Of a stretch of 18,815 nucleotides of DNA, positions 1 through 18,521 are shown piece after piece (position 1 is the first letter of the stretch; each line of letters opens with the position of its first letter). This stretch comes from Candidatus Fervidifonticultor secundus (GTDB lineage Bacteria > Sysuimicrobiota > Sysuimicrobiia > Sysuimicrobiales > Humicultoraceae), in NCBI GenBank assembly GCA_031459385.1, contig JAVKIP010000034.1:1-18815 (forward strand). Reading direction: 5' to 3'. The notes below the pieces were generated by a model. That model did not search any database, was not told where the DNA came from, and worked only from the letters and a program-made list of their open reading frames with translations. The translations under genes and the position numbers were made by a program.

Positions 1-443
1 TCGCCGATCACCAGGGCGCCGCCCCCACCGAACAGGATGCGTCCGGGCTCCTGGTAGTCGGCGCCGAAGTTGACGAAGGCGCCGATGGTGCGCGGCGCGC
101 CCACGATGGCGGCGATGCGCTCCTCGTTGAAGCCGTTCTGCATCGAGACGATGGCGCCGTCGGGCGCCAGGTGCGGGGCGACCTGCGCGGTCGCCGCCTC
201 GGTGTGCATCGTCTTCACCGCCAGGAAGACCATGCGCAGCGGGCCGCGCACCTCGGCCGGGCCGAGCGCCGGAGCCCGTACGGTGAACGTCTCCTGCTGG
301 CCCTCGATGGTCAGGCCGCGGGCGTTGATGGCCGCCACGTGGTCGGCCGCGGCGTCCACGAAGGTGATGGCATGACCCGCCCGCGCCAGGTGCGCGCCGA
401 GCACCCCGCCGATGGCGCCTGCGCCGACGATCGTGATCTCCAT
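1..443 (-). CDS. Ketopantoate reductase (PanE/ApbA) family NAD(P)-dependent 2-oxoacid reductase; N-terminal part, runs off the window edge
   Basis: Not in the ORF track. Manual translation from ATG at 443 gives MEITIVGAGAIGGVLGAHLARAGHAITFVD...VFLAVKTMHT...IVSMQNGFNEE, with the Rossmann GxGxxG, the AVK motif and the QNG motif typical of ApbA/PanE. Starts 5 nt after the capA-like stop. Confidence 0.9.
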   Translation of the reverse strand, partial: MEITIVGAGAIGGVLGAHLARAGHAITFVDAAADHVAAINARGLTIEGQQETFTVRAPALGPAEVRGPLRMVFLAVKTMHTEAATAQVAPHLAPDGAIVSMQNGFNEERIAAIVGAPRTIGAFVNFGADYQEPGRILFGGGGALVIG

Positions 444-448
444 GGGGG

Positions 449-1585
449 TCACCTCGCCACGCCGGCGGGGTGCAGGGCGATCTGCCCGCGGTCGCCGGCG
501 GATGTGATCGTGACGCCGTAGGGCGTCGACTGCTCGGCCAGGCTGGTCAGGATGCGCGCCGCGTCCGTGCCGGTCGCCAGCTCGGGGTCGCCGTCGGCGT
601 TCATCACGACCGGCACGAGCTCCACGCCGTGCACCCCGCCGGCGTCGCAGCGCACCAGCGCGATCACCGAGTCGAGGTTGACGGGCGAGCGCAGGCTCTT
701 CCACGAGTAGGGCGGGTCGGGCCGCCGCAGCGTCGGGAACCGCCCCGGCGTCACGGAGTGGAAGAGGAAGTTCCCCAGGCTGTAGAAGACCGGCCGGCCG
801 TTGATGACGTCGATGCCGTGCAGGACGTGGGGGTGGTGGCCCACGACGACGTCGGCCCCGGCGTCGATGAGCGCCTCGGCCAGCGGCCGCTGGTAGCCGG
901 CCACCGGGTTCTGGAACGCGGCCACGAACCCGTGCGGCACGCCCCAGTGCACCCCGACCACCACCACATCGGCCTGCCGTTTGGCCTGCGCCACCGCTTC
1001 CGCCGCCACCTCGACGTCGCCGGGCCAGCAGCGCGTCTCGACGTAGGGCGCCTTGCCCGGCGTTTCGTCCAGCCCCGCGTTGTCCACGACGTACAGCGTC
1101 GTGACGTGCACCGGCGCGATGCCGGGCCGGTCGGGCGCCGCGGCGCTGCCCACGGGCAGGGTCGAGGCCAGGCCGAGGAACGCCACGCGCGCGCCCCGGG
1201 CCGTCAGCACCGCCGGTGCCAGGGCCTCGGCCAGCGTGCGCCCGGCCCCGACCGCCGGCAGGCCGGTCTGCCGCAGTGTCTCCAGCGTGTCGAACAGCCC
1301 GTCGGGCCCGTAGTCGAGCATGTGGTTGTTGGCCAGCGTCACGACATCGATGCCCGCGGCGCGCAGGTCGCCGGCCAGCCGGGGGTCGGCGCGGAAGGCC
1401 ACGTGCTTGTCGGCCGGCGCGCCGCGCGAGGTGAGCGGCACCTCCAGGTTGACGAAGACCAGGTCGGCCTGGTGGAAGACCTCCCAGACCGCCGCGCTGC
1501 CCGGCGACCGGCCGCCGCCGGCCGGCGTGATGGGGCGTTCGAGCATCAGGTCGCCCGCCAGGGCGACGGTGAGCGGCTGACTCAT
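449..1585 (-). CDS. CapA/PgsA family metallophosphatase-fold protein (no signal peptide, predicted cytoplasmic)
   Basis: Motifs LAGDLM, VNLE, LANNHMLDYG, VHWG, GHHPHV and YSLGNF are the hallmark CapA (PGA_cap) motifs. Confidence 0.92.
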   Translation of the reverse strand: MSQPLTVALAGDLMLERPITPAGGGRSPGSAAVWEVFHQADLVFVNLEVPLTSRGAPADKHVAFRADPRLAGDLRAAGIDVVTLANNHMLDYGPDGLFDTLETLRQTGLPAVGAGRTLAEALAPAVLTARGARVAFLGLASTLPVGSAAAPDRPGIAPVHVTTLYVVDNAGLDETPGKAPYVETRCWPGDVEVAAEAVAQAKRQADVVVVGVHWGVPHGFVAAFQNPVAGYQRPLAEALIDAGADVVVGHHPHVLHGIDVINGRPVFYSLGNFLFHSVTPGRFPTLRRPDPPYSWKSLRSPVNLDSVIALVRCDAGGVHGVELVPVVMNADGDPELATGTDAARILTSLAEQSTPYGVTITSAGDRGQIALHPAGVAR

Positions 1586-1631
1586 GGCGCACCTCGCAGC
1601 GTGGTCTCAGTGCTCTGCGCGCACCGTCGAC

Positions 1632-2531
1632 TCATCGCTCAGCCAGTGTCGGGTCGATGGCGTCGCGCAACCCGTCGCCGAACCAGTTGTAGCACAGCAC
1701 CGTGAGGAAGATCATCAGGCCCGGGAACACTGCCAGGCCCGGCACCGTCCGCAGGTAGGCCCGCGCGCCGGAGAGCATGTTGCCCCACGACGGCGCCGGC
1801 GGCTGCACGCCCAGGCCCAGGAACGACAGCGACGTCTCCAGCAGCACCGCGTAGGCCACGCCCAGCGTGGCGGCCACCGTGATCGAGGGGATGGACTGGG
1901 GCACCACGTGTCGGGCCAGGATGCGCCACCCGCTGCATCCCAGCGCGCGGGCCGCCAGCACGAACTCCAGGGTGCGCGTGCGCAGCACCTCGGCCCGCAC
2001 GACCCGCGCCACGGTCATCCACGAGGTGAGCGCGATCACCGCCACCAGGTTCACCAGGGTCGCTCCCAGCATCGCCAGGGCCATGAGCGCCACGAAGAAG
2101 AGCGGGACCGCCAGCATTCCGTCCGTCACCCGCATCAGGAGCACGTCGGCGATCCCGCCCAGGTACCCGGCCAGCGCGCCGATCGCCACGCCAATGCCCA
2201 TCGACGCCAGCACAGACGCCAACCCCACGGCCAGCGAGACCCGGCCGCCGTAGAGCAGCCGCGTCAGGACGTCGCGGCCGTACTCGTCGGTCCCCAGCCA
2301 GTACGGGCGGCCGGGCGGCCGCAGCCGGTCGCCGAGCGCGATGGCCTCGGGGTCGGCCGGTGCGAGCCAGGGCGCCGCGGCCACCGCAGCGTGGATCAGT
2401 ACCAGCACCCCCAGGGCCGCCACGGCCAGGCGGTTGCGCCGGAACCGGGCGACGATCCGGCCGCCCGGCGTGCGGGTCCGCGGCAGCGCCGGGCGGCTAC
2501 TCGTACCTGATGCGCGGATCGAGGTAGACAT
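1632..2531 (-). CDS. Peptide/nickel/opine ABC transporter permease, DppC/OppC type (start codon uncertain)
   Basis: RFRRNRLAV N-terminus, WLGTDEYGRDVLTRLLYGGRVSL, EAA-like loop EFVLAARALG, ETSLSFLGLG...PSWGNML, GDGLRDAIDP. Confidence 0.93.
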   Translation of the reverse strand: MSTSIRASGTSSRPALPRTRTPGGRIVARFRRNRLAVAALGVLVLIHAAVAAAPWLAPADPEAIALGDRLRPPGRPYWLGTDEYGRDVLTRLLYGGRVSLAVGLASVLASMGIGVAIGALAGYLGGIADVLLMRVTDGMLAVPLFFVALMALAMLGATLVNLVAVIALTSWMTVARVVRAEVLRTRTLEFVLAARALGCSGWRILARHVVPQSIPSITVAATLGVAYAVLLETSLSFLGLGVQPPAPSWGNMLSGARAYLRTVPGLAVFPGLMIFLTVLCYNWFGDGLRDAIDPTLAER

Positions 2532-3444
2532 AGAGGAGGTCGACCAGCAGGGTGCTGGCCACCACCACCGCCGAGATCACCAGCGTGATGCCCATGATCA
2601 TGGGGTAGTCGCGCTCGAACGCCGCGCGCACCGCCAGGCTGCCCATGCCGGGCCAGGCAAAGACCGTCTCGGTGATGGCGGCCCCGCCCACCAGACGCGG
2701 CAGCTGCAGCCCGACCACCGTGACGACGGTGAGCAGGGCGTTGCGCAGCGCGTGGCGGTAGAGCACGCTGCGCTCGGGCAGCCCCTTCGAGCGCGCGGTG
2801 CGCACGTAGTCCTGGCGCAGCACCGCCATGGTGGCCGAGCGCGTGTACCGCGCGAACAGGGCCATGTTGGCCGTGCCCAGCACCACCGCCGGCAGGACCA
2901 GGTGGCGCAGGACGTCCAGCGCCGAGCGCTCGCCGCCCAGCGTGTGCATCCCGCCCGGCGGCAGCCAGCCCAGCACGATGGAGAACAGCACGATCAGCAT
3001 GAGCCCGTACCAGAACGTGGGCACCGAGATGCCGAAGAAGCACAGGGTGGTGACGGCGTGATCGATGGCCGAGTAGGGGCGGGCTGCGGAGATCACGCCT
3101 GCCGGAATGGCCACCACCAGCGAGAGCGCCAGGCTGGCCGCCGACAGCAGTAACGTGTTGGGCAGCATCTGGAGGATGATCTCCAGCACCGGCAGTCCGG
3201 CCTGGTAGGAGACGCCCAGGTTCCCGCGCAGCACCTGCGCCAGCCACCGCACGTACTGCACGTGCACCGGCTGGTCCAGGCCCAGCAGCGCCCGCATCCG
3301 GGCCAGCTCCTCGGCGCCCATGTTGCGGTCCAGCAGGATGGACGGCCCGCCCGGGGCCTGGGTGACCAGCGCGAAGACCACCACGCTGACCACCAAAAGC
3401 AGGATCACCGTCTGCACCAGCCGGCGCAGGAGGTAGCGGCTCAC
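2497..3444 (-). CDS. Peptide/nickel/opine ABC transporter permease, DppB/OppB type
   Basis: GTG start; YLLRRL, LGLDQP..VQY, DYVRTARSKGL, ETVFAWPGMG, RDYP, DLLYVYLDPRIRY. Confidence 0.95.
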   Translation of the reverse strand: MSRYLLRRLVQTVILLLVVSVVVFALVTQAPGGPSILLDRNMGAEELARMRALLGLDQPVHVQYVRWLAQVLRGNLGVSYQAGLPVLEIILQMLPNTLLLSAASLALSLVVAIPAGVISAARPYSAIDHAVTTLCFFGISVPTFWYGLMLIVLFSIVLGWLPPGGMHTLGGERSALDVLRHLVLPAVVLGTANMALFARYTRSATMAVLRQDYVRTARSKGLPERSVLYRHALRNALLTVVTVVGLQLPRLVGGAAITETVFAWPGMGSLAVRAAFERDYPMIMGITLVISAVVVASTLLVDLLYVYLDPRIRYE

Positions 3445-3483
3445 CGTCGCGCGGAGGCTCTGGGCGCGTCACACCCGGCGCGC

Positions 3484-5079
3484 TCAGCGCCCGATGGCGA
3501 CGTTCGTCATGTGCGTCAGCGCGTCGCGGTAGCCCATCTTCACCCAGCCCTGCACCCGGCGGTTGATCGCCTGCAGCTCGTGCGGGTAGACCAGGTAGAT
3601 GACGGGCGCGTCCCAGGCCATGAGCTTCTGGGCCTGCTGGTAGATCCTGGCGCGCTCCTTGGGGTCGAAGGTCGCGCGGCCTGCCTCCAGGAGACGGTCC
3701 AGCTCAGCGTTGGCGTAGCCGAACTCGTTGAGGGTCCCCTGGCTGTGGTAGTAGGCCAAAATGTCGGCTTCCGGCGGCGTGATGTACCACAGCGTCCAGG
3801 TCTGGAGCGGGTTGGGGCGCGACCGGATGCGCGAGAGCAGCGCGTTGAACTCGCTCACGCGCACCTCGGCGTCCACGCCGACATCGCGCCAGTACTGACG
3901 CGTCACCACCGCGGTCTGCTCGCGCACCGGGTTGCCGCGGTCTACGTCGATGGTGATCTTCAGCGGCTGTCCGCCCTTGCGCCGGATGCCGTCCGGGCCC
4001 CTGGCCCAGCCGGCCTCCTCCAGCAGGCGGTTGGCCAGGTCGGGGTTGTAGGGGAACTGGTGGACCTTGTCGGTGTACGCCCAGGCGATCAGCGGGTTGA
4101 TCGGCCCGGTGGCCAGCCGGCCCTTGCCCTGGTAGATCTTGTCGAGGATGGCCTTGCGGTCCACCGCGTGGGTGAGCGCCTGGCGCACTTTGCGGTCGTC
4201 GAAGGGCTCCAACTTGTGGTTGAAGGCCACGAAGGTGTAGTTGACCTGCGGCGCGTCGATCACCTGGACGTTGGGCATGCGCTGGACCAGGCTCAGCTGG
4301 TGGGGCTCGATGATCATCAGGTCGAGCTGCCCGGTCTGGAGCTGCGCCAGCTGCTGTTCGAGATCGGCGACCACGCGGAAGACGATGGCGTCCAGCCGCG
4401 GACGGCCGCCGAAGTAGCGGTCGTAGGCCACCAGGCGCACGTGCGAGCCCAGCACGCTCTCGGCGAACCGGAACGGCCCGGTGCCGATGGGGTTGCGCAG
4501 GAACTCCACCGGGTTGCGGAGCTGGTCGACGGTATAGCGGCCGAGGATGTGCTCGGGCAGGATGTTGGCCAGGTAGCCCAGCATGACCGGCAGCGTGGCG
4601 AACGGCACCCGCGTCACGATGCGCACCGTGTAGTCGTCGACGATATCCACGCGGCTGATCTCGCTCACGTTCCCCCGCTGGAAGAACGGCACCTGGGGGT
4701 TCAGCCACAGCCGCTCGATGGTGAACTTCACGTCGCGGGCCGTGAAGGGCTGGCCGTCGTGCCAGGTGGCGTTCCGCCGTAGCGCAAACGTCCAGGTGAG
4801 ACGGTCGTCGCCCAGCGTCCAGCGCTCGGCCAGGTCGCCCACGGGCTGCCAGTTGTTGGGATCGTACTTGACCAGCGTGCTGTAGAGCACCTTATTGACC
4901 AGGATGTTGGGCAGGCCGCCCACGATGGGCCACATCCGGGCGTTGTCGATGATGGGCAGCGTGAAGGTCCCGCCGCGGGCCTGCGCAGCCACGGGCTGCG
5001 AGACCCCGGCTGCGGCCAGCAGGACAGCTGCGACCGCGAGGGTCGCCGCCCGGAGCGCCGTACTAACCGCCTGGTGCAT
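3484..5079 (-). CDS. ABC transporter substrate-binding protein, family 5 (DppA/OppA type), 531 aa
   Basis: Real start is ATG 5079 (MHQAVSTALRAA...) after a strong RBS GGAGGTGAGGAGC. Sec-type signal peptide ending VAA|Q with no lipobox. Family-5 motifs LAERW, WHDGQPFTARDVKFT, PIGTGPF, VRQALTHAVDR, LLEEAGW. The upstream extension in the ORF track is spurious. Confidence 0.95.
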   Translation of the reverse strand: MHQAVSTALRAATLAVAAVLLAAAGVSQPVAAQARGGTFTLPIIDNARMWPIVGGLPNILVNKVLYSTLVKYDPNNWQPVGDLAERWTLGDDRLTWTFALRRNATWHDGQPFTARDVKFTIERLWLNPQVPFFQRGNVSEISRVDIVDDYTVRIVTRVPFATLPVMLGYLANILPEHILGRYTVDQLRNPVEFLRNPIGTGPFRFAESVLGSHVRLVAYDRYFGGRPRLDAIVFRVVADLEQQLAQLQTGQLDLMIIEPHQLSLVQRMPNVQVIDAPQVNYTFVAFNHKLEPFDDRKVRQALTHAVDRKAILDKIYQGKGRLATGPINPLIAWAYTDKVHQFPYNPDLANRLLEEAGWARGPDGIRRKGGQPLKITIDVDRGNPVREQTAVVTRQYWRDVGVDAEVRVSEFNALLSRIRSRPNPLQTWTLWYITPPEADILAYYHSQGTLNEFGYANAELDRLLEAGRATFDPKERARIYQQAQKLMAWDAPVIYLVYPHELQAINRRVQGWVKMGYRDALTHMTNVAIGR

Positions 5080-5084
5080 GCTCC

Positions 5085-6932
5085 TCACCTCCGACGGAAT
5101 CGGTTCGTGTCGGCCACCGCGTCCAGCGCCGCCGCGGCGGTCTGCAGGGTATGGGCCACCTGGTTGCGCCGCCGCACGAGCCGCGTGGCCAGCACGCGCG
5201 CCTCGTGGGAAGTCGGGTCCATCTGCGCCAGGTCCCGCGCGTCGGCCAGCGCCGGCAGCGGCCGCTGCGGGACGGCGGGATCGTGGTCGAACGGGTTGCC
5301 GCCCACGTAGCCCACCTGCACCAGCGCCCGGATCGCCGCCCGCCGGGCGCGCGCCAGCGCCTCCACGCGGCGGGGCGGTGCGCCGCCGGGCTGCGCTGCC
5401 GCGGCGACGGCCCGGTCGAACCGGCGCGCCTGGGCGGCGAGCCGGTCCAGCGCGGCGGCCACCGGGCTCAGGTCGAACCGCTCGCCGACATCGTGCTGCA
5501 AGCCGGCGACGACCTGCCGCAGTTCCAGGACCGCGGGCGCCACCTGCTGCGGCGGCAGGGGCTCGGCCGCGAACCGGTAGGCGGCCGCCAAGTAGATCTG
5601 CGCGTCCAGCCGCAGGATCTGCGGGTCGACCTTGTCCAGCGTGTCCGCCTCGGTGTGCCACCACCAGCCCAGGCCCGAGCCGCCCACGTGCCAGCGCTGG
5701 CCCGGTGGCCGCACCGACAGCCCCATGAACAGCGACGGGACGCCCGCACCCCAGAACGACTGGTCGCCGGCGCGCACCGGCCGCTCCCAGCCCACGGTCT
5801 GCCCGGTGCGCTCGCGGATCAGCGCGACCCCAAACGCCGCCACGTCGGCCGTGGCCGTGATGGGGTCGTAGCTCGTCGCGCCGACGACGCCCGGCGAGTC
5901 GCAGTTGATGTGCAGGATACAGTGCTCGGCCAGCTCGGCCCAGAACCGGTCGGCGTACCAGGTGGACCCCGCGTAGCGCCCGGTGGAGTGCCCGGGCCAG
6001 AAGGCGCAGCGCACGCCCCGGTGCAGCCGGGCCCGCGCGCCGTGCAGGAGGCGCGCGACCTCCATGGTGACCGCGTTGCCCGTGGCGTTGTCGGTGGCGC
6101 CCAGGTGCCAGGAGTCCACGTGCCCGGAGAAGAGCACGAACTCCTCCGTGCGCCCGGGGACGTACGCCACCGGCAGCGTCACGCGCCGCCAGCCGCTCTC
6201 CACCCGGCTGTGCAGCCGCAGCCGCACCGGGCCGCGGGCGAGCGCGGCGCGCAGCGCCTCGCCGCTTCCCTTCGTGATGCCCAGGATGGGGATGCGGGGG
6301 AACGCCTGGACGGTCTCGGGCGTCGGCGCGCCCCAGACCGGCGAGACGATCCCCTCGTGGATGGCCTCCTCGTCGCTGGGCCACATGTGCAGGTAGGCCA
6401 CCGCGCCGCGCTCCTGGGCCGCCTGCATGTTGCGCCGGCTGCCGGCCTCGGACAGCACGATCTTGCCGGCCACGAGGTCGGCGTCGAGCCGCCGGTGGGT
6501 TTCGGTGTCGCGAAACAGGTCGACCCCGCCGGGGACAGAGACGACCTCGGCGGTAATCCCCTCGGGCGGGGTGACACCCGAGAACGACCGGGTCTTCGCC
6601 GGGATCTGCGCCGGGAGGCCGTCGCCTGCCAGCACCTCGATGCGACCCTCGCGCGGGTAGCTCAGGTAGGCGTCGAACTCGTGGACGTCAACGCGGATCC
6701 CGTCGGCCCGCAGCCGCTGCGCGATGTAGTCCATGGCGCGGCGCTCGCCCGCGGTCCCCGAGGTGCGGTCGAAGCCGCAGAGGAACTCCAGGTCGCGCCA
6801 CATGCGGTCGAGCGAGACCTGCGCCACGATGTCGCCGGGCCCGGCGGCGCTGGCGCGGGCCCTCGGCGCCGCGGGTCGGCGCGTGGCGCCGACCTGGCGC
6901 CGCCCCGTCACCGCGCGGGCGCCGGTCCTCAC
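5085..6932 (-). CDS. M28 family metallo-peptidase/hydrolase with PA domain and atypical active-site loop
   Basis: RTSGTAGERRAMDYI, PA-domain region (GKIVL...GAVA...PRIPILGIT), SGHVDSW...ATDNATG, INCDSPG, WWHTEADTLDKVD. Start placed at GTG 6932 (GTGA overlap with the racemase stop); GTG 6911 or a later start is possible. Confidence 0.85.
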   Translation of the reverse strand: MRTGARAVTGRRQVGATRRPAAPRARASAAGPGDIVAQVSLDRMWRDLEFLCGFDRTSGTAGERRAMDYIAQRLRADGIRVDVHEFDAYLSYPREGRIEVLAGDGLPAQIPAKTRSFSGVTPPEGITAEVVSVPGGVDLFRDTETHRRLDADLVAGKIVLSEAGSRRNMQAAQERGAVAYLHMWPSDEEAIHEGIVSPVWGAPTPETVQAFPRIPILGITKGSGEALRAALARGPVRLRLHSRVESGWRRVTLPVAYVPGRTEEFVLFSGHVDSWHLGATDNATGNAVTMEVARLLHGARARLHRGVRCAFWPGHSTGRYAGSTWYADRFWAELAEHCILHINCDSPGVVGATSYDPITATADVAAFGVALIRERTGQTVGWERPVRAGDQSFWGAGVPSLFMGLSVRPPGQRWHVGGSGLGWWWHTEADTLDKVDPQILRLDAQIYLAAAYRFAAEPLPPQQVAPAVLELRQVVAGLQHDVGERFDLSPVAAALDRLAAQARRFDRAVAAAAQPGGAPPRRVEALARARRAAIRALVQVGYVGGNPFDHDPAVPQRPLPALADARDLAQMDPTSHEARVLATRLVRRRNQVAHTLQTAAAALDAVADTNRFRRR

Positions 6933-7657
6933 GCGCCGCCCCCCGTCTGCGGGGCGACCGCGGCGCGTTGCAGGGCGGTGGGGGTGGGGTAGGCGACCTT
7001 CGAGTGCGCCAGGCGGCTGCCGACCAGGAACTCGGCCATGCGCACCGAGACCCGCAGCACGTTGACCACCGGCACGGGCAGCACCGCAGCCAGGTCGTCG
7101 CCGAAGCGGTGGCTGAGGCTGGCGCACGCCAGCACCAGCGCGTCGGCACCGTCCTCGGCGATGCAGCGGCGGGCGACGCCCACGATCTTGTCGAGCGTCT
7201 CGCGCCGGCCGGCCCGCAGCTCCATCACCCCGCAGCCCACCGAGCGGACCGAGGCGCACTTCTCGGCCAGGCCGCAGTGGCGGACGAGCGCGCGCGTGGG
7301 GCGCACCGTGCTCTCCAGCGGCGAGAGCACAGAGAACCGGTCGCCCAGCATGGCGGCGGCGTGGAGGCCCGCCTGCCCCGGCCCAACGACCGGAATGCGC
7401 ACCAGCTCCCGCGCCGCTTCCACGCCCGGGTCCCCGGCGCAGCCCGTGATGACGGCGTCGTAGCCCCGGCGCTCGGCCTCCACGCACATCTCGACCGTCC
7501 ACGGCGCCAGCAGCGCCTCGTCGTAGAGCGACTCGATGACCTCGGGCCGCGGCCACGACGGCGCCAAGTCGCCAAGCGTCTCGACGGCGACCCCGGGGCT
7601 CGCGGTGTCCTGCAGGTAGCGGCGGCGCTCCTCGCCGCCCAGGTAGCACAGGCGCAT
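6929..7657 (-). CDS. Asp/Glu/hydantoin racemase family protein (hydantoin/allantoin racemase-like)
   Basis: IESLYDEAL, catalytic Cys pair in ITGCAGDPGVEAARE and LVLACASL, VPVV. RBS AGGAGGGAG upstream of ATG 7657. Confidence 0.9.
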   Translation of the reverse strand: MRLCYLGGEERRRYLQDTASPGVAVETLGDLAPSWPRPEVIESLYDEALLAPWTVEMCVEAERRGYDAVITGCAGDPGVEAARELVRIPVVGPGQAGLHAAAMLGDRFSVLSPLESTVRPTRALVRHCGLAEKCASVRSVGCGVMELRAGRRETLDKIVGVARRCIAEDGADALVLACASLSHRFGDDLAAVLPVPVVNVLRVSVRMAEFLVGSRLAHSKVAYPTPTALQRAAVAPQTGGGA

Positions 7658-7848
7658 CGATCTCCCTCCTAGGGAATATCATGACAGTTCGTCCATGCAG
7701 ACGCGGCTCCCTGCGCTGCCGGACCCGTGGGCAGTCTCGCGCAACAGCGACGCCCCCACCGCATCCCGCCATGCGGGACGACAGGTCGGCGGGAGCCGGA
7801 CCCACTGCCTGTCGGGCGAGCTCCGCCGTGGCCTGGCCCGGCCCGGCC

Positions 7849-7879
7849 AAACGTGTATACTGTAAAAATGTATGCAGTT
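7849..7879. promoter_or_regulatory. Candidate operator / divergent promoter core (TGTATAC-N9-GTATGCA imperfect inverted repeat)
   Basis: AT-rich island AAACGTGTATACTGTAAAAATGTATGCAGTT in otherwise very GC-rich DNA between the divergent operons. Two GTAT(A/G)C cores resemble GntR/FadR-type boxes. Confidence 0.55.
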
Positions 7880-7993
7880 CGCCGTGCCACCCGCAGCGCG
7901 CCCACTCTGTGCAGGGGGCCCGTGCGCGTCGCGGGCCGGGGCCGCGGGAGCACCGCTGTGCGCGGCGCTGCCCCTGTGCGACGGAGCGCCGTG

Positions 7994-8980
7994 ATGGCCC
8001 TCGTACTGACCCCCGAGCAGATCGACGCCTGCCTCACCTACGACGACGTGCTGGCAGCCCTGCGGGCCGGGTTCCTCGCCGAGGCCGAGGGGCGCGTCGC
8101 ACAGCCGGACCGCCTCACCACCGACGTCCCCTCCGGCTGGCTGCGCATCATGCCGGCGGTGGTGGGCGGCGACGGCGCGGGCTACATGGGCTGCAAGGTG
8201 ATGAACCTGGTGCGGGGCGCCGGTGTCCGCTACCTGATCCTCCTCTACAGCGCGGGCAGCGGCGACCTGCTGGCGGTCATGGACGCGGCGCAGATCACGC
8301 AGATGCGCACTGCGGGCGTGGCGGTGCTGGCCGCGCAGCGCATGCTCGACGGCCCGTTTGCGGTCCTGGGCGTGCTGGGCAGCGGCTACGAGGCGCGGGG
8401 CCTGCTGGTGGCCATGGCCGAGGCGTTCCCGTTCGCGGAGGCGGTCGTCTACAGCCCGCGACGGTCCAGCCGCGAGGCGTTCGCGGACGCGATGAGCCCG
8501 CGTATCGGACGGCCGGTCATGGCGGTCGACTCCGCCGAGGCCGTGCTGCACCGTACGCCCGTGACCGTGCTGGCCACGAAGAGCGCCACCCCTGTGCTCG
8601 ACGGCCGGCGGCTGCTCCCGGGCGCGACGGTGCTGTCCGTCGGGTCCACGCGGCTCGACCTGCGCGAGCTCGACCTCGAGTCGCTGCGGCGGGCGCGCTG
8701 GCTGCTCGTGGACTCGGTGCGCGGCGTGCGCACCGAGTCGGGCGACGTCCGGGCCGCGCTGGATGCGGGGGCGCTGGCCCCGGAGCGGATCGTGCCGCTC
8801 GCCGACGTGCTGCGTGACGGCCGGCGGCTGCGTGCGCATCCCGACGACGTTCTCGTCCTGAAGACCGTCGGCACCGCGATGCAGGACCTGGTGGTGGCCG
8901 GACGCGTCTACGAGCGCGCCCGGGCCCGGGGCCTGGGCACTGAGATCGGCCAGATCCCGCAGCTCAAGCCGTTCGCGTGA
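7994..8980 (+). CDS. Ornithine cyclodeaminase / mu-crystallin (imine reductase) family protein
   Basis: MALVLTPEQI start with GGAG RBS; LRIMPA, GCKV, ITQMRTAG, LGVLGSGYEA, VLATKSATPVL, KTVGTAMQDL. Confidence 0.92.
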   Translation: MALVLTPEQIDACLTYDDVLAALRAGFLAEAEGRVAQPDRLTTDVPSGWLRIMPAVVGGDGAGYMGCKVMNLVRGAGVRYLILLYSAGSGDLLAVMDAAQITQMRTAGVAVLAAQRMLDGPFAVLGVLGSGYEARGLLVAMAEAFPFAEAVVYSPRRSSREAFADAMSPRIGRPVMAVDSAEAVLHRTPVTVLATKSATPVLDGRRLLPGATVLSVGSTRLDLRELDLESLRRARWLLVDSVRGVRTESGDVRAALDAGALAPERIVPLADVLRDGRRLRAHPDDVLVLKTVGTAMQDLVVAGRVYERARARGLGTEIGQIPQLKPFA

Positions 8981-9025
8981 TCCCGCGCCGCGGCGGCGGC
9001 AGGGGGGGAGGAGGCGCAGCCAGGC

Positions 9026-9679
9026 ATGCCCGAGGCCATCCTCTTCTCGCAGATGACGCCCCCGCCCGACCTCGAGGCGGAGTTCGGCGACTGGTACGAC
9101 CACGAGCACGTGCCGGCGCGCCTGGCGATCCCGGGCTTCCTGGGCGCACGCCGGTACGTGGCGGTGCAGGCCGACCCCCGGTACGCGGTCACGTACTCTC
9201 TGGCCGGGCTCGGCGCGCTGCACCACCCCGCCTACGTCCGCCTCAAGGACGCGCCAAGCCCCCGCACCGCGCGGATGCTGGCGGCGGTGCGCGGCTTCAC
9301 GCGCTACGTGGGGGAGGAACTGGCGCGCCACCGGCGGCCCGACGCGCCGGCGGGCCCCGAGGCCGCGCCGTACCTGTACGCGGTGATGTTCGCGGTGCCG
9401 CCGGCGCGCGCGGCCGAGTTCGACCGCTGGTACGACGACGAGCACTGCCCGATGCTGTTGGCAAACCCGCACTGGTGGCAGGTCCGGCGCTATGCCATCC
9501 GGGAGGGCACGCCCGGCCCGTGGACGCATCTGGCCCTGCACTACCTGGCCGATCTCGCCGCACTCGACGGACCGGAGCGCGCTCGAGCACGGGCCACGCC
9601 CTGGCGCGCCCGCCTGGCGGCCGAGCCGTGGTTTGCGCCCCAAGGCGCCATCTACCGCGGGCTGCCTCCGGCATGGTAG
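9026..9679 (+). CDS. Tandem DUF4286/EthD-like (dimeric alpha-beta barrel) domain protein
   Basis: Two copies of the EFxxWYxxEHxP...RRY motif (EFGDWYDHEHVPARLAIPGFLGARRY and EFDRWYDDEHCPMLLANPHWWQVRRY). RBS GGAGGAGG upstream. Confidence 0.8.
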   Translation: MPEAILFSQMTPPPDLEAEFGDWYDHEHVPARLAIPGFLGARRYVAVQADPRYAVTYSLAGLGALHHPAYVRLKDAPSPRTARMLAAVRGFTRYVGEELARHRRPDAPAGPEAAPYLYAVMFAVPPARAAEFDRWYDDEHCPMLLANPHWWQVRRYAIREGTPGPWTHLALHYLADLAALDGPERARARATPWRARLAAEPWFAPQGAIYRGLPPAW

Positions 9680-9770
9680 TGGGGGGCGCAGCAGGCCCGA
9701 GGGCCCGGCCGCACGACGGTCGGAACGAGCGGCGCGGCAGCAGAGGGCGCGCGCCGGGGGAGGAGGGACG

Positions 9771-10346
9771 ATGCTGGCGGTCCGCAAGTGGCTGACAGTC
9801 GTTGAGGAAGTGCACGCCGAGATGGGGCGCGGCGACGGCGGCCCGCCGCTGCGCAAGGCGGCGGTGTGCGCCGTGGTGCGCAACCCCCATGCCGGCCGCT
9901 ATGTGGAGGACCTGGGCGACCTGGTCGGGGCGAGCGCGGCGCTGGGCGACGAACTCTGCCGGCGCGCCGCGGCCGCCCTGGGCGCGCCCGTCGAGTCCTA
10001 TGGCAAGGGTGGGATCGTCGGGATCGACGGCGACCAGGAGCACATCAACGCGCTCCTCACCACAGTCTTCGGCGACGTCATGCGCGCCCACGCGGGCGGC
10101 GGCAGGGCCTGGATTCCTTCCATGACCAAGCGGGGCGGGCCGGGCGAGCGCATCGATATCCCGCTGGCCTACAAGGACGCCCTCTACGTCCGTTCGCACT
10201 ACGACGGGATCACCGTGGCCGTCCCGGATGCACCCGGCCCCGATGAGATCGTCGTGGTCGCCGCCTACGCCAACCGCGGCCGGCTCAACGCCCGGCTAGG
10301 TGGCCTGCGCAAAGAGGAGGCGACGGCCGGCGATGGGCTGCGCTGA
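9771..10346 (+). CDS. Amino acid synthesis family protein (AA_synth, PF06684 / DUF1185)
   Basis: ATG 9771 after GGAGGAGGG. Family motifs VRK...VEE, AVVRNPHAGRYVEDL, ESYGKGGIVG..GDQEH, IDIPLAYKDALYVRSHYD, DAPGPDEIVV. Confidence 0.9.
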   Translation: MLAVRKWLTVVEEVHAEMGRGDGGPPLRKAAVCAVVRNPHAGRYVEDLGDLVGASAALGDELCRRAAAALGAPVESYGKGGIVGIDGDQEHINALLTTVFGDVMRAHAGGGRAWIPSMTKRGGPGERIDIPLAYKDALYVRSHYDGITVAVPDAPGPDEIVVVAAYANRGRLNARLGGLRKEEATAGDGLR

Positions 10347-11529
10347 CCCGGCCGCCACCGCGATCGTCAACATCGGCACCATCGTCACGGGCCGGCTGGA
10401 GGCGCCGTTCGCGGACGGCGACGCGGTTCTCATGGTCGACGGCACCATCGCCGCCATCGGCCGGCGCGCGGACCTGGACCTGGAGCGGGCGGTGCTGGTG
10501 ATCGACGCCGGCGGCGCGACGCTGGTCCCGGGATTGATCGACTCGCACTGCCACGTCGTCATCGGCGACTACACGCCGCGGCAGAAGACCGTGGACTTCC
10601 TCGAGTCGTACGTCCACGGTGGCATCACGCGCGTCATCTCGCCCAGCGAGGTCCACGCGCCGGGCCGGCCCCGCGACCCCGCGGGCGTCAAGGCCCTGGC
10701 CCTGGCCGCCCAGCGCTGCTTCCTCCACTACCGGCCCGGCGGCATGACGGTCCACGGCGGCTCGGTCATCCTGGAGCCCGGCCTCACCGAGGCCGACTTC
10801 GCCGAGCTCGCCGCCCAGGGCGTGTGGCTGGCCAAGGCCGGCTTCGGCAACTTCACCCGGCCGCGCGACTGCGCGCCGCTGGTGCGCTGGGCGCAGCAGC
10901 ACGGTTTCGTCGTCATGTGCCACACCGGCGGAGCGTCCATTCCCGGCTCGTCGCCGGTGACCGCCGACGACCTGCTCGAGATGCTGCCCGACGTCAGCGG
11001 GCACGTGAACGGCGGGCCGACGGCCATGGCCGACGGGGACGTCGAGCGCGTCGTCACGCAGACGGAGATCGCGCTGCAGGTTGTCCAGGCCGGCAACCTA
11101 CGCTCGGCGCTCCACGTCGCGCGCCTGGCGCGGGAGGCCGGCCAGCTGGCCCGCCTGCTGATCGCCAGCGACACGCCCACGGGTACCGGGACGATGCCGC
11201 TGGCGGTCCTGAAGTCGGTGGTCGAGCTGTCCTCGCTCGGGCCCCTGCCGCCCGAGGTGGCGCTGGCCGCAGCCACGGGCAACGTGGGCCGCGTCTACCG
11301 GCTCGAAGCGGGCATCCTCGCGCCCGGCCGCCCGGCCGACCTGCTGCTGCTCGACGCGCCGCTCGGCTCGCACGACCGCGATGCCCTGCACGCCATCGCC
11401 CGCGGCGACATCCCCGCGGTTGCGGCAGTGTGCACCGCGGGCGAGCTGCGGGTGCTGGGCAGCCGCAACACCCCGCCGCCGACGCGGCCGATCCGGGTGA
11501 TCAGGGACGCGACGCGGCGCTGGTCGTGA
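10333..11529 (+). CDS. Enamidase-like amidohydrolase
   Basis: PGLIDSHCH, GDYTPRQKT, PGRPRDPAGVKALA, HTGGASIPGS, GHVNGGPTA, SDTPTGTG, SRNTPP closely follow, from memory, Eubacterium barkeri enamidase (nicotinate fermentation). ATG 10333 overlaps the AA_synth gene end by 14 nt. Confidence 0.88.
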   Translation: MGCADPAATAIVNIGTIVTGRLEAPFADGDAVLMVDGTIAAIGRRADLDLERAVLVIDAGGATLVPGLIDSHCHVVIGDYTPRQKTVDFLESYVHGGITRVISPSEVHAPGRPRDPAGVKALALAAQRCFLHYRPGGMTVHGGSVILEPGLTEADFAELAAQGVWLAKAGFGNFTRPRDCAPLVRWAQQHGFVVMCHTGGASIPGSSPVTADDLLEMLPDVSGHVNGGPTAMADGDVERVVTQTEIALQVVQAGNLRSALHVARLAREAGQLARLLIASDTPTGTGTMPLAVLKSVVELSSLGPLPPEVALAAATGNVGRVYRLEAGILAPGRPADLLLLDAPLGSHDRDALHAIARGDIPAVAAVCTAGELRVLGSRNTPPPTRPIRVIRDATRRWS

Positions 11530-11614
11530 GTGGGCCCTGGCAGGCCGGCCGATGGCCAGGGGGGAAGCGCGAGGCCGAAGTCGGGCGTGAGTGCGCGGGA
11601 GAGGAGGAGCGGTG

Positions 11615-12646
11615 ATGAGCGCGGTGGTCGCCTTACCCTACACGCGGGGCGAGGCCAAGGAGTGGGCGCAGGCCACCTGGCACGGCTGCTGCAACGTGGT
11701 GATGCCGACGTTCACCCGTGACTGCAGGCGGTTGAACGCCCGGGCCATCGCCCACGACGTCCAGCGCTCGGCGCAACTCGGCTTCTGGGGGACGCTGCTG
11801 GTCTCCGAGTGCGGCACCACGCTGGACGAGTACTGCCAGCTGATCGATATCGCCGCCGGCGCGCGGCCCAGGGACTTCCACCTGGTGGTCCACGGGTCGT
11901 TCGACGCGCTGGAGGACGTGATCGCCGCCTGCCGCTACGGCCAGATGCACGGGTGCAGCGCGGTGCTGCTGTCGTATCCGACCTATTTCTATCCGACCAC
12001 CGCCCGGGAGATCTACGACTACACGCGTGCGGTGGCCGAGGCCACCGACCTGGCCGTCATCCTCTTCGTCGTGCCGACGTGGAACTTCGCCCGCTTCCAC
12101 CCCAGCCAATTCCCTTTGGACGTGCTGGTGGAGATGTGCGACCTCGAGACGGTCGTGGCCGTGAAGTACGAGGCCGGCCAACCCGGCTTCTCCGGCATGG
12201 TCCAGGTGCACCGCCTGCTGCAGGGGCGAAGGGTGCTGCTGTCCGAGCCGATGGAGTACAACGGGCCGGCCTGCGTCGAGCTATTCGGCATGCAGTGGAT
12301 GGGCACGAGCGGCTACGAGTACTTCGCCGACCGTGTGCCGCGCTGGTTCCGTCTGCTGCGGGACGGCCACTTCGACGAGGGGATGGACCTGTTCTGGACG
12401 CTCCAGCCCGCCCGCCTAGCCCGCGGGCAGCTCCACGCCTCCATCGCCGGCGCCAAGCTCATCCACCGGACCGCCTGGAAGTACATGGGCTGGCTGAATG
12501 GCATGGCCGGCGGCCCCCTGCGGATGCCGACGATGCGCCTGGACGACGCGCAGATGCGCGCGCTGCGGCTGGGGCTGGAGCGCTCGGGGATCGCGCCGAC
12601 CGCCGACCCTGATGCTGCGTTCTTCCTCGGGCGCTTCCCCGAGTAG
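11615..12646 (+). CDS. Dihydrodipicolinate synthase / N-acetylneuraminate lyase superfamily aldolase (not canonical DapA)
   Basis: RBS GAGGAGGAG; PTF...LN..AI..DV, LLSYPTYFYP, AVAEATDLAVILF, Schiff-base Lys in VVAVKYE, GGPLRMP. Lacks the GTTGE motif of DapA. Confidence 0.85.
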   Translation: MSAVVALPYTRGEAKEWAQATWHGCCNVVMPTFTRDCRRLNARAIAHDVQRSAQLGFWGTLLVSECGTTLDEYCQLIDIAAGARPRDFHLVVHGSFDALEDVIAACRYGQMHGCSAVLLSYPTYFYPTTAREIYDYTRAVAEATDLAVILFVVPTWNFARFHPSQFPLDVLVEMCDLETVVAVKYEAGQPGFSGMVQVHRLLQGRRVLLSEPMEYNGPACVELFGMQWMGTSGYEYFADRVPRWFRLLRDGHFDEGMDLFWTLQPARLARGQLHASIAGAKLIHRTAWKYMGWLNGMAGGPLRMPTMRLDDAQMRALRLGLERSGIAPTADPDAAFFLGRFPE

Positions 12647-12718
12647 CGTGGGCTCGCCGTCCCCTGGCATCCGCGCAACCGCCGCCACCGCCGCCACCGC
12701 CCCGAGGGTCGCCAGGCG

Positions 12719-13495
12719 CTAGATCCCGATGTCGATGATCGCCGAGACGCCCACACCGGGCACCCGCCGGAACGCCTCCCAGGGCTTGAGGTTGTCTACC
12801 GGCACGTAGGCCTTGATGCGGAACGCCGTCTGGTGGTCCGCCTCCAGCAGGGCGACTGCCTGCACGCGCTCCAGCGCGGCCGGGGGGCCGGACACCTGGG
12901 CGGCGCCAATGTACGCGCTGCCCGGCGTCTGCAGCCCGATGGTGACGCTGAGGATCGGGACCACTTTCGTCTGGGCCTGGACCGCCGCGCCGCGGTTCTG
13001 TAGCAGCGTGTTGATGAAGCTGTTGATCGACGGGCCGAAGGTGCGGACCACGTAGCCGATGCCGAAGGTCTTGATGATGGTCACGAGCAGGTTGCTGCTG
13101 CCGGCGGGCGGCGCCACGGCCGGTGGCGCCTGGGGGACCGGCTGCGGGGGGACGGCGATGGCGGTTCCGCCGCTGCGGCCCAGGAACGTGATCTTGCGCG
13201 CCAGCACGTTCTGGCCGCCGAGCCAGGCACCCTTAACTTCGACGACGTCGCCGGGCGTCAGCCGGCGGATTCTGCGGTCGTCATCGTCGTCATCGAGTTC
13301 CCTGCGGATGATGAACACCGTCCACCGGGTCCCCCGGCCGAGTTCCTGCACCTGGAAGTTGCCGGCGGCGTCCTGCGCCACGATCACGCCGGTCAGGCGG
13401 ATGTGGTTGCCGTTGGCGCGCGCCGCCAGCGGCGCGAGCACCGATGTCCCGAGGAACACGACCAGAACCAGCGCGATCGCCCTTACGGATGTCAC
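12719..13495 (-). CDS. Secreted hypothetical protein: signal peptide, OB-fold/DUF5666-like region, Pro-rich linker, conserved-looking C-terminal domain
   Basis: GTG start with RBS GGAGGTG. Hydrophobic signal peptide ending ARA|N, LTPGDVVEVKG..VLARKI segment, PPQPVPQAPP linker, C-terminal TKVVPILS...YIGAAQVSGP...RVPGVGVSAIIDI. Confidence 0.8.
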   Translation of the reverse strand: MTSVRAIALVLVVFLGTSVLAPLAARANGNHIRLTGVIVAQDAAGNFQVQELGRGTRWTVFIIRRELDDDDDDRRIRRLTPGDVVEVKGAWLGGQNVLARKITFLGRSGGTAIAVPPQPVPQAPPAVAPPAGSSNLLVTIIKTFGIGYVVRTFGPSINSFINTLLQNRGAAVQAQTKVVPILSVTIGLQTPGSAYIGAAQVSGPPAALERVQAVALLEADHQTAFRIKAYVPVDNLKPWEAFRRVPGVGVSAIIDIGI

Positions 13496-13891
13496 GGCGG
13501 CTCACCTCCACATCGGGTGGGGCGTTCTGCCCCGGCACCTTCCTTACGTATGTGCCCACCCGGGGGGCCCCGCCGCAGCGGGAGGTGTGTAATCGGAACC
13601 GTTGACCTGAATCCGCCGGCATTTGGGGTTTGCCCGTGAGAATCCTGATTCGAGGCCCCGCCAGCAGTGCGGCACACAGCGTGTGAAGGAGAATTTGGCT
13701 GCTCACCAAATAACGTCGCCACGATCGCGGTGATCGGTGAAGCGACATTCCACCCGTTTCGGGGATCGGGTGTGTCATCGCCGAGGTCTCCGGCAACGCA
13801 CCAGTGCCTCCAGCATCCCAGAGATGCTGCTGGCGCATCAACCTCGCGGACTCCTCGAAACTGTGGTGGGTAGAGCGGACAGGGGAAGGAT

Positions 13892-15075: not shown

Positions 15076-15151
15076 GCCGGGGTAGCTCAGTTGGTAGAGC
15101 GGCGGACTGAAGATCCGCGCGTCGGCGGTTCGATTCCGTCCCCCGGCACCA
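15076..15151 (+). tRNA. trnF: tRNA-Phe (GAA), 76 nt, CCA encoded
   Basis: Acceptor stem GCCGGGG/CCCCGGC, D arm TAGCTCAGTTGGTAGAGC, anticodon arm GCGGA-CTGAAGA-TCCGC, T arm GGCGG-TTCGATT-CCGTC, 3' ACCA. Confidence 0.97.
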
Positions 15152-16444: not shown

Positions 16445-16887
16445 GGCGCGGCGGCAGCCGGCTGCGGGGGCTGGTCGCTGGTGACGATCTCCACGCTGAT
16501 CGCCGCCGTCTTCCGCAACATCGCCGAGACCGAGCAGTACTTCTCCTCCGACAGCCGGACCGCGCGCTCGACCTGGTCGCGCCGCAGGCCCGGCCCCCAC
16601 GCCACGTAGCGCAGCCGGATCGCCGTGAACACCTTGGGGTGCTCGGCCGCCCGGTCGGCGGAGACGTCGATCACGAGCCCCTCCAGCGGTGCCCGCATCT
16701 TCGCCAGCGTGTTCACCACGTCGATCCCCGTGCACCCGGCCAGCGCCATCAGCACGGTCTCCATCGGCGAGGGGCCGGCGCCGGTGCCACCGGCGTCGGG
16801 CCGCGCGTCCATGGTCAGCCGGGCACCGCTGGCCAGCGAGCGGCCCTCGAACCGCTTGGGTGCCGTCCAGACGACCTGCACGTCCAT
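16441..16887 (-). CDS. OsmC/Ohr family protein (YhfA-like)
   Basis: GPSPMETVLMALAGCTGIDV and AVRLSEEKYCSVSAML (Cys pair). ATG 16887 is preferred because GGAGG lies just upstream; ATG 16902 is the alternative. Confidence 0.92.
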   Translation of the reverse strand: MDVQVVWTAPKRFEGRSLASGARLTMDARPDAGGTGAGPSPMETVLMALAGCTGIDVVNTLAKMRAPLEGLVIDVSADRAAEHPKVFTAIRLRYVAWGPGLRRDQVERAVRLSEEKYCSVSAMLRKTAAISVEIVTSDQPPQPAAAAP

Positions 16888-18507: not shown

Positions 18508-18521
18508 GGGAGGGAAGGATC

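Follow-up and report, generated by a model that had tools for sequence, protein, structure and literature searches.

Two divergent operons of Candidatus Fervidifonticultor secundus: probably separate catabolic units, one combining an enamidase homolog with a DHDPS-like/OCD enzyme pair

Pathways of nicotinate degradation are among the closest described systems for the DNA analysed here. In Eubacterium barkeri the upper pathway consists of nicotinate dehydrogenase, 6-hydroxynicotinate reductase and enamidase, and (S)-2-formylglutarate is given as the enamidase product (PMC9304392). Nicotinate gene clusters of the 1,4,5,6-tetrahydro-6-oxonicotinate (THON) type have been described for Proteobacteria (PMC3511419). 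In trigonelline (tgn) breakdown by Acinetobacter baylyi, TgnF, a DUF1185 protein, has been reported to stimulate the oxidation of succinate semialdehyde by TgnE (as cited in PMC7913881). We compared with these systems a window of 18,815 nucleotides, which is the complete contig C28 (JAVKIP010000034.1) of the 59-contig, 3.3-Mb assembly (G000, GCA_031459385.1) of the hot-spring bacterium Candidatus Fervidifonticultor secundus. It carries a left operon headed by a hydantoin/allantoin-racemase-like gene and, facing away from it, a right operon that runs from a gene of the ornithine cyclodeaminase (OCD) family through DUF4286, AA_synth (DUF1185) and enamidase-homolog genes to a divergent member of the dihydrodipicolinate synthase (DHDPS) superfamily.

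The initial annotation of this window, made from the sequence alone, had described two tightly packed divergent operons with 12 genes and an operator-like site between them. Reading frames chosen by third-position G+C (GC3) and Pfam families bear out this layout, all the families that it named are present (12 of 12 in Pfam), and a palindrome does lie between the operons. Its view of a catabolic cluster with nitrogenous amide or cyclic-amide chemistry is supported as well, ring opening by an enamidase-type enzyme (match to PDB 2VUN) being the best-founded step. What did not hold was the proposal of one 12-gene pathway for one substrate. A search of species-representative genomes gave 489 places with a relative of the DHDPS-like gene; the best 80 loci were examined, and none of them has homologs of the racemase, M28, CapA or PanE genes nearby (0/80). 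In the opposite direction, a racemase-anchored search gave 11 metagenome loci with an ortholog at 73-88% identity; an OCD gene lies upstream of the racemase in 2 of them, the closest ones, L091 and L094, and the enamidase block in none (0/11). In G002, a genome of the same genus, the left operon is not accompanied by this block. Co-occurrence and co-regulation, which the initial annotation had proposed as a check, thus failed between the operons, where there is no conserved synteny and the upstream control elements are separate; synteny holds within each. We therefore consider that these are probably two separate catabolic operons lying side by side, the left one an uptake unit and the right one part of a GntR/FCD regulon for a lactam-type N-heterocycle.

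The right operon and its operator

The enamidase homolog aligns with the E. barkeri enzyme (2VUN) over residues 19-400 against 3-385 of 386 (E 7.3e-123, 413.8 bits) and keeps the HxH metal motif, DSHCHV standing against DTHVHV of 2VUN. The earlier label "enamidase-like" was correct and can be sharpened, as the protein is a full-length near relative of the E. barkeri enamidase. Downstream genes as reported second-hand for the E. barkeri pathway were, in contrast, not seen in the window by Pfam.

Enamidase homologs occur in 3 of 40 relatives (3 of the 24 from the same family, 0 of 2 from the same genus and 0 of 16 from other families of the order). G012 carries on one strand genes for OCD, a Liv-type importer, GntR, isochorismatase, VOC, DUF4286, AA_synth, enamidase, the DHDPS-like protein and an XDH-family Mo-subunit; G017 has AA_synth, enamidase and DHDPS-like genes on a 3.2-kb contig, and G003 has GntR, VOC, DUF4286 and enamidase genes with a second-type DHDPS-like/OCD/VOC/HyuAB cluster 12 kb off. 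The cluster of Thermomicrobium roseum contains GntR, DHDPS-family, Rieske alpha/beta, SDR and XDH Mo-subunit genes together with AA_synth, an enamidase homolog, enoyl-CoA hydratases, a CoA ligase and VOC, while the Mesorhizobium cluster has a three-subunit XDH, succinate-semialdehyde dehydrogenase, GntR, AA_synth, an enamidase homolog and a Liv importer. Agrobacterium vitis has GntR, AA_synth, an enamidase homolog, DUF4286, a FAD monooxygenase and an ABC importer flanked by transposases, and Sulfitobacter two AA_synth genes, UPF0280, XDH, an enamidase homolog and beta-oxidation-type genes. XDH-family hydroxylase genes thus stand beside AA_synth/enamidase in G012, T. roseum, Mesorhizobium and Sulfitobacter. 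An enamidase homolog at E <=1e-40 was found in 25 plasmid or megaplasmid records; AA_synth lies within 10 kb of it in at least 21 of them and at 23 kb in one, three records not being among the matches listed. DUF4286 adjoins the enamidase homolog in 2 of these 25, and G012, G003, A. vitis and Mariluticola likewise have the two genes side by side.

Judged by this gene content, the enamidase/AA_synth part of the operon is a variant of the THON-type nicotinate degradation already described (PMC3511419). The initial annotation had not recognised the combination as a described pathway, which for this part has to be corrected; for the DHDPS-like/OCD pair and the left operon it stands, as no description of these, or of the His-Ser M28 family discussed below, was found in the searched literature, which is weak evidence with most subscription journals outside the search. 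The likeness to THON-type clusters, including those of Azorhizobium caulinodans and Bradyrhizobium, lies in the near full-length match to enamidase and in the XDH-family hydroxylase, GntR and ABC importer genes clustered in relatives of the window; the difference is that the window and the C59 and C23 loci treated below are without a hydroxylase and without a recognised 6-hydroxynicotinate reductase (Hnr)-type enzyme. HyuAB genes, accompanied by DHDPS-like and VOC genes, are found at the place of the enamidase in the C59 cluster and in L013, L016 and L071, and in this paralogous cluster type HyuAB is, by position, the putative lactamase.

The DUF1185 fold resembles that of RidA-type deaminases. 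Two structures of the family have been solved, with a fold like that of the Bacillus chorismate mutase and a function that is not known (PMC2954203). The tgn pathway resembles the present case in that AA_synth/DUF1185 has an accessory part there when a derivative of a pyridine carboxylate is broken down, and the succinate-semialdehyde dehydrogenase gene of Mesorhizobium lies about 1.6 kb from AA_synth-enamidase. It differs in that the window has no equivalents of the Rieske proteins TgnA/B, of TgnC or of TgnD, and the partner of AA_synth here is an enamidase-type hydrolase.

The subfamily of the DHDPS-like protein is large and has no name, with 603 homologs at E <=1e-10. By profile alignment it keeps the Schiff-base lysine, its invariant K192 aligning with the Lys of GVKFT in N-acetylneuraminate lyase (NAL), and has an invariant phenylalanine, F159, at the position of the catalytic tyrosine (aligned with the Tyr of IIYSIP), which we take to be Y133 in DHDPS and Y137 in NAL. 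SECGT replaces the substrate-carboxylate motif GxTGE, and none of the NCBIfam models matches the protein. A NahE-type hydratase-aldolase was considered and rejected, with no entry of this type among the best 60 of 109 PDB profile matches. The OCD protein falls under all NCBIfam cut-offs; its top matches include models of reductases for pyrroline-2-carboxylate and piperideine-2-carboxylate (Pyr2C/Pip2C; E 1.6e-37).

An OCD homolog lies near the DHDPS-like gene in 71/80 loci, with a median gap of 10 bp across the 60 loci that have a clustered OCD. Aldehyde dehydrogenase (23/80), family-5 binding protein (14/80), AA_synth (3/80), enamidase homolog (2/80) and DUF4286 (2/80) are less frequent. Among clustered neighbouring open reading frames, SDR (33), VOC dioxygenases (23) and two groups of Rieske oxygenases (21 and 19) lead, followed by GntR/FCD (18 and 8), aldehyde dehydrogenase (18), CMD (14) and M24 (14); the M24 genes are creatinase/prolidase-like and occur in 14 loci, and a second, canonical DHDPS occurs in 12. 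In a quick tree the window OCD groups with those of G002, L091 and G012, and this group falls in a supported clade of OCDs adjoining DHDPS-like genes, outside which the two other OCD paralogs of the genome lie; 60 of the 67 rows of this tree had been selected for lying near a DHDPS-like gene. The window type of DHDPS-like gene (>=78%) is present in 2 of the 40 relatives, and carriers of DHDPS-like relatives include cultured Rhodococcus, Streptomyces, Nocardia and Sulfobacillus. Because of the neighbour counts and the tree placement, we read OCD and the DHDPS-like protein as an old pair, between which DUF4286, AA_synth and the enamidase homolog appear to have been inserted.

Routes for hydroxyproline and Pyr2C employ LhpC/HypD of the DHDPS family, LhpI of the OCD family and a semialdehyde dehydrogenase, and clusters for hydroxyproline are composed of a DHDPS-family, an OCD-family and an aldehyde dehydrogenase gene. 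The same two superfamilies are paired here, often with an aldehyde dehydrogenase, and it might be supposed that the right operon degrades not a pyridine-derived ring but a cyclic amino acid or lactam resembling hydroxyproline, pipecolate, 6-oxopipecolate or pyroglutamate. OCD would then be a Pyr2C/Pip2C-type imine enzyme, in keeping with its best NCBIfam matches below cut-off; the DHDPS-like protein would resemble the deaminase of pyrroline-4-hydroxy-2-carboxylate (Pyr4H2C), and the enamidase homolog would be a plain lactamase. The M24 and second DHDPS genes of some loci also fit. We hold this to be unlikely, as the DHDPS-like protein departs from those of the hydroxyproline routes (Phe for Tyr, SECGT for GxTGE, no NCBIfam model), the enamidase homolog is very close to a THON-specific enzyme, and its recurrent partners are XDH-family hydroxylases and AA_synth. 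The usual neighbours of the DHDPS-like gene are Rieske, SDR and VOC genes, unlike in the hydroxyproline routes, and the right operon is by Pfam without genes of the proline-racemase or D-amino-acid dehydrogenase type. A kynurenate or quinoline pathway was also thought of for the Rieske/SDR/VOC/DHDPS-like contexts and was dropped, the literature search having given no gene-level description.

The intergenic region holds the operator-like site GTGTATACTGT...ATGTATGCAGTTCG, and a cleaner form, CTGTATAC-N10-GTATACAG, occurs in the matching intergenic region of two relatives. The palindrome between the operons is conserved in the window, L091 and L094, the two-site copy of the window differing in one half-site. 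A strict two-site motif (GTATAC-N9-11-GTATAC, at most one mismatch) was found in these three loci only, apart from a likely chance match in L088; among 18 left-operon loci it was not found upstream of the racemase (within 450 bp; less than 300 bp in three loci), except in L091 and L094. Links to other operons emerge only with the core of the single palindrome, CTGTATACAG, and not with the two-site motif. The sole exact match to this core in the 3.3-Mb genome is C59:38978, some 85 bp upstream of where a binding-protein gene probably starts; this gene heads an operon of importer, second DHDPS-like, VOC, HyuA, HyuB, SDR and luciferase-like genes. Of the eight hits with one mismatch, that at C23:30330 coincides in part with the promoter and start of a GntR/FCD gene, and this gene and the adjoining VOC are the best matches in the genome to the regulator and the VOC of the G012 cluster (66% and 59% identity). 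Related sites stand upstream of the GntR-VOC-DUF4286-enamidase operon of G003 (ACTGTATACAGTTCG) and of the OCD-led operon of G012 (TCTGTATACTGTTGACAGT) and in the Sulfobacillus cluster (ACTGTATACAGTTGACAGT). The palindrome has 33 hits in 1.35 Mb of DHDPS-like loci (20/80 loci) against 9 in the 3.3-Mb genome, two sets that differ in G+C content. In addition, at C59:26943-39102 the importer is of the NMT1 type, the second DHDPS-like gene has 57% identity, and there is no OCD gene, unlike in the L013 and L016 counterparts.

GT..AC palindromes are typical of GntR-family operators. Since matching sites precede the C23 and C59 operons as well as operons of relatives, the operator-like site is most likely part of a GntR regulon that serves the right-hand pathway and would be split over C28, C23 and C59. 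The right operon would then make up one of its three dispersed loci, with the regulator and one VOC protein encoded on C23 and an importer, a second DHDPS-like protein, a VOC protein, the ATP-dependent lactamase HyuAB, an SDR and a luciferase-like enzyme on C59. The most likely substrate would be a 2-pyridone carboxylate that is partly reduced and of nicotinate/THON type. With THON as the model, the enamidase homolog would hydrolyse the cyclic enamide to an open-chain enamine or aldehyde acid and ammonia. AA_synth, and perhaps DUF4286 too, might assist this ring opening or a preceding step; AA_synth may speed up the conversion of enamine to aldehyde or an earlier ring reduction. The lysine-dependent DHDPS-like enzyme would then carry out Schiff-base C-C or decarboxylation chemistry on the opened chain, on which the OCD-family NAD(P) enzyme could reduce or oxidise an imine.

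The left operon and the variable region

The racemase-like protein matches PDB 3QVJ (E 9.5e-27). Its TGCAGDPG and LACAS segments align with both cysteines of that structure, and both catalytic cysteines are therefore present; the same two positions are Ser in 3QVK, taken to be a mutant. In this family and these residues the left operon resembles the hydantoin-utilisation (hyu) and allantoin racemase systems (PDB 3QVJ, 5LFD). It differs from them by having no hydantoinase, carbamoylase or allantoinase of known families (Pfam), and the genes beside the racemase encode instead the altered M28 protein, the CapA-fold protein, the PanE-like reductase and a peptide-type importer. The only solved relative of the CapA-fold protein is MslH, a C-terminal Trp epimerase of lasso peptides with the PGA_cap fold (PDB 8GQ9, E 1.7e-33). 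The CapA-fold protein scores 154.6 bits with the NCBIfam model for MslH, far under the equivalog cut-off of 700, and in contrast to the MslH system the window has no lasso-peptide genes.

The initial annotation had listed an M28 hydrolase, of which the family stands and the activity does not follow: where solved members have the catalytic and metal-binding Glu-Glu (AAEELG in 3IIB, GAEENG in 2EK8), PGHSTG of this protein has His-Ser. As the GHS motif is kept in all 11 aligned members of the M28-like family, "M28 hydrolase" is an unsafe label. The remaining motifs GHVDSW, TDNATG, INCDS and WHT are conserved, and we take them to be the metal-ligand motifs (HxD, bridging Asp, NxD and C-terminal His). 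The family motif at the Glu-Glu site is W(P/S)GHS(H/T/Q)GR, with at least six copies in the genome; five of these adjoin Opp-type binding-protein/permease genes and the sixth (C47, at a contig end) a CapA-fold gene. At least five further loci (C9, C12, C21, C36 and C47) pair an M28-like gene of about 600 aa with Opp-type genes and assorted amidohydrolases, C21 also having a racemase and C47 a CapA-fold gene, and the left operon is accordingly one of at least six paralogous loci.

The Opp-type importer that had been annotated is represented by a family-5 binding protein and two permeases of the Opp/Dpp type (Pfam), and not by ATPases; no ATPase gene, of which two with a C-terminal oligo_HPY domain are expected, was found in the window, in the full L101 operon or in G002. 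OppD/F ATPase pairs of the genome number two, on C34 (~138-141 kb) and C58 (~8.5-10.6 kb), as against many Opp-type binding-protein/permease sets without ATPase genes, which suggests that ATPases are shared among the Opp-type importers. We propose that the left operon may take up a compound of peptide-like, amide or cyclic-ureide nature with the help of ATPases encoded elsewhere, and may then racemise or epimerise and further process it; given the altered M28 site, hydrolysis is no more than a possible part of this.

In 9 of the 11 metagenome loci the M28 gene follows the racemase, and the other two contigs end within the racemase. The longest locus, L101, has the order of the window, namely racemase, M28, binding protein, OppB, OppC, CapA and PanE, and then a second M28 gene; full-length PanE orthologs come after CapA in L101 and G002, and the left operon of relatives additionally has an SDR and a second M28-like gene. 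What lies upstream of the racemase varies among loci (OsmC, phosphatase, ArsR, or a copper ATPase together with MerR). Of the 40 relatives, 8 have a racemase ortholog at >=70% identity, both same-genus genomes included. A bipartite element, CAGG(G/A)..N..(A/G)CGAA, precedes the racemase in 18/18 left-operon loci and ends 24-32 nt before its start in 16 of them (55 and 74 nt in the other two); the pattern, which was defined post hoc, after the sequences had been viewed, is found in 2.8% of random 130-nt windows of the genome. The element resembles a promoter of a type unfamiliar for this phylum. From gene order and upstream sequence, the left operon is a self-contained unit with what looks like a promoter element of its own.

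The segment between tRNA-Phe and the racemase differs among relatives. The near-complete G002 shares with the window a backbone of aldehyde dehydrogenase, OsmC, MFS, tRNA-Phe, OCD, racemase to PanE, SDR and second M28 gene (M28b), but the block from DUF4286 to the DHDPS-like gene is absent at its locus and 4 kb of thiamine genes lie between OCD and racemase. There (C1; L131 11109-14918) the OCD ortholog, at 87% identity, ends a thiO-thiG-tenI-OCD string, an unexpected tie to thiazole/thiamine biosynthesis. The left operon is found in both same-genus genomes and the enamidase block in neither, and OCD is kept in the one whose locus was examined (G002). In L094 homology to the window breaks off with the stop codon of OCD and begins again at tRNA-Phe. 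In G012 the two units lie on separate contigs, and its right operon is flanked by unrelated genes. Because the window, G002 and L094 differ there, the segment from tRNA-Phe to the racemase is, as we read it, a variable hot spot in which the two operons would be adjacent by an accident of location.

These data also bear on the single pathway of the initial annotation, spelled out here as import of a conjugated or peptide-linked N-heterocycle by the Opp-type system, deconjugation by the M28 and CapA proteins, racemisation, and then opening and cleavage by the right operon, with one shared operator for both operons. The back-to-back arrangement with a conserved palindrome between the operons (window, L091, L094) speaks for it, as do the lack of an importer of its own in the right operon of the window and the confirmation of the adjacency by contigs of other runs. 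Yet outside the sub-lineage the operons do not co-occur, as the counts from both search directions given above indicate, the left operon of G002 stands without the enamidase block, thi genes being interposed, and in G012, where the units are apart, the right operon has its own Liv-type importer. The left operon has a separate conserved promoter-like element, and palindromes of this type are met again at the operons of C59 and C23, where an importer and a regulator are encoded. A single pathway is accordingly quite improbable to us.

Gene layout and surroundings

The genes of the window (G+C 73%) were counted from the GC3 frame analysis and Pfam as seven on the minus and five on the plus strand. 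They are spaced by 2-101 nt or overlap within the operons, which a region of 336 nt separates (Table 1). Contigs from three other runs of the same study cover 6425-8771 and 7610-12830, and since they span the junctions, the layout is not an assembly artefact.

Table 1. Features of the window with their coordinates, strand and supporting matches
Feature	Position	Strand	Evidence or remark
PanE/ApbA-family reductase, N-terminal 146 aa, truncated at contig end; last visible left-operon gene	3-443	-	Pfam ApbA E 6e-34
CapA-fold (PGA_cap) protein	449-1585	-	Pfam PGA_cap E 4.5e-70
OppC-type ABC permease	1632-2531	-	BPD_transp_1 + OppC_N; under all NCBIfam equivalog cut-offs
OppB-type ABC permease	2497-3444	-	BPD_transp_1 + BPD_transp_1_N
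Family-5 (Opp/Dpp/Nik-type) solute-binding protein, signal peptide	3484-5079	-	SBP_bac_5 E 8e-91; start codon located
M28-derived protein, ~580 aa	5085-6827	-	Pfam Peptidase_M28 E 2e-13
Hydantoin/allantoin-racemase-like protein, first left-operon gene	6929-7657	-	Asp_Glu_race E 1.8e-37
Promoter-like bipartite element of left operon	7688-7713	-	CAGGGAG..N..ACGAA, ends 30 nt before racemase ATG
Operator-like site	7853-7881	.	Two imperfect copies of palindrome ACTGTATACAGT, 113-141 nt upstream of OCD start
OCD/mu-crystallin NAD(P)-dependent enzyme (imine reductase, dehydrogenase or cyclodeaminase type)	7994-8980	+	Pfam E 2.9e-37
Two-domain DUF4286/EthD-like alpha+beta-barrel protein	9026-9679	+	Pfam 27.6 bits, cut-off 25.8; Atlas clusters DUF4286/EthD
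AA_synth (DUF1185) protein	9771-10346	+	Pfam E 2.8e-64; PDB 2QTP E 2.4e-43
Enamidase homolog (cyclic enamide/lactam hydrolase; amidohydrolase)	10333-11529	+	2VUN E 7.3e-123; ATG preceded by AAGAGGAGG
Divergent DHDPS/NAL-superfamily protein	11615-12646	+	Pfam DHDPS E 1.1e-9; residue numbering from GTG at 11591
Secreted DUF5666-like protein	12719-13495	-	
tRNA-Gln(CTG)	13780-13857	-	
tRNA-Phe(GAA)	15076-15151	+	
MFS transporter, OsmC, aldehyde dehydrogenase (17068-18507), start of AMP-binding CoA-ligase-like gene	15248-18815		

Beyond the tRNA genes, the MFS, OsmC and aldehyde dehydrogenase genes have the same order in G002, with 83-88% protein identity, the G002 stretch ending inside the dehydrogenase; they are a stable backbone and lie outside the finding. 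The DUF5666-like protein has paralogs at C23:28331-28708 and C12:151043-151435, the C-terminal halves of the three being 74-75% identical. One copy is convergent to the right operon of the window and another to the GntR-VOC unit of C23, and the independently assembled contigs among the matches listed all break at 12803-12830, inside this repeat. At the other end of the window, contig C36 has an ortholog of the second M28 gene next to an SDR fragment, and not next to the PanE C-terminus; as the order in G002 is PanE-SDR-M28b, C36 and C28 are probably neighbouring contigs with a gap between them.

Balance of the readings and their meaning

That the right operon is a stranded remnant of a larger, G012-like cluster, rearranged near tRNA-Phe and without coherent function, is very unlikely: compared with G012 it does lack the genes for an importer, GntR, isochorismatase, VOC and a Mo-hydroxylase, genomes of the same genus differ in this region, and DUF5666 paralog repeats flank both this operon and the C23 GntR-VOC unit, but none of its five frames is broken, the GC3 signal is strong and ribosome-binding sites are present, the missing regulator and VOC are encoded on C23, and all three loci retain matching operator sites, which together indicate a working split regulon.

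Several observations nevertheless weigh against two separate operons with a right-hand GntR regulon for a lactam-type ring. From base composition about 19 one-mismatch hits of the palindrome core per strand are expected and 9 were seen, so that the regulon argument rests on the location of the hits and not on their number. Each operator copy of the window is off the core at two positions and was missed by the one-mismatch genome scan, and the site sits between both operons, so the left one could still respond to it. The three operator-bearing loci of this genome have no Mo-hydroxylase, the best match to that of G012 being 50% identical and located elsewhere, and no recognised 6-hydroxynicotinate reductase or other ring reductase, a negative obtained with no Hnr query. 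With neither a hydroxylase nor a recognised ring reductase at these loci, nicotinate itself may not be the substrate; the C59 operon carries a luciferase-like enzyme. The DHDPS-like/OCD pair is mostly found with Rieske oxygenases, SDRs and extradiol dioxygenases and seldom with an enamidase, and as its neighbours are mostly aromatic-ring oxygenases, its role downstream of a THON-type ring opening is a guess. We know of no nicotinate pathway that uses the OCD or the DHDPS-like family. Finally, the DHDPS-family genes of the T. roseum and Rhodococcus USK13 clusters have no detectable similarity to that of the window (tblastn, E 1e-6). As a separate observation, the 3.3-Mb genome has 13 genes for molybdopterin subunits of the XDH/CODH family, an unusually large set of candidate hydroxylases.

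We still regard two separate operons as the probable arrangement. More tentatively, the DHDPS-like protein with Phe and the OCD enzyme could possibly be a two-enzyme module under the GntR operator ACTGTATACAGT that finishes the breakdown of a lactam-type N-heterocycle after ring opening by enamidase or HyuAB. A possible scheme would couple Schiff-base cleavage or decarboxylation of the aldehyde or enamine acid with NAD(P)H-dependent imine reduction to an amino acid, in which the ring nitrogen would be kept.

The locus illustrates that gene adjacency in a variable region beside a tRNA gene can mimic a pathway. AA_synth (DUF1185) emerges as a consistent partner of enamidase homologs, though its family has no known function, and the His-Ser M28 family, expanded in this hot-spring bacterium to six loci or more, is one in which new chemistry or a role in binding may be sought. 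The widespread, uncharacterised DHDPS-like/OCD pair, which a GntR-type operator appears to tie to ring opening by enamidase or HyuAB, offers a way to test the little-known reactions that follow ring opening in the degradation of vitamin-B3-like N-heterocycles, and cultured carriers (T. roseum, A. vitis, Rhodococcus, Streptomyces and Sulfobacillus) make bench tests feasible. If the proposed role is true, the DHDPS-like/OCD module would represent a widespread and so far unrecognised lower pathway.

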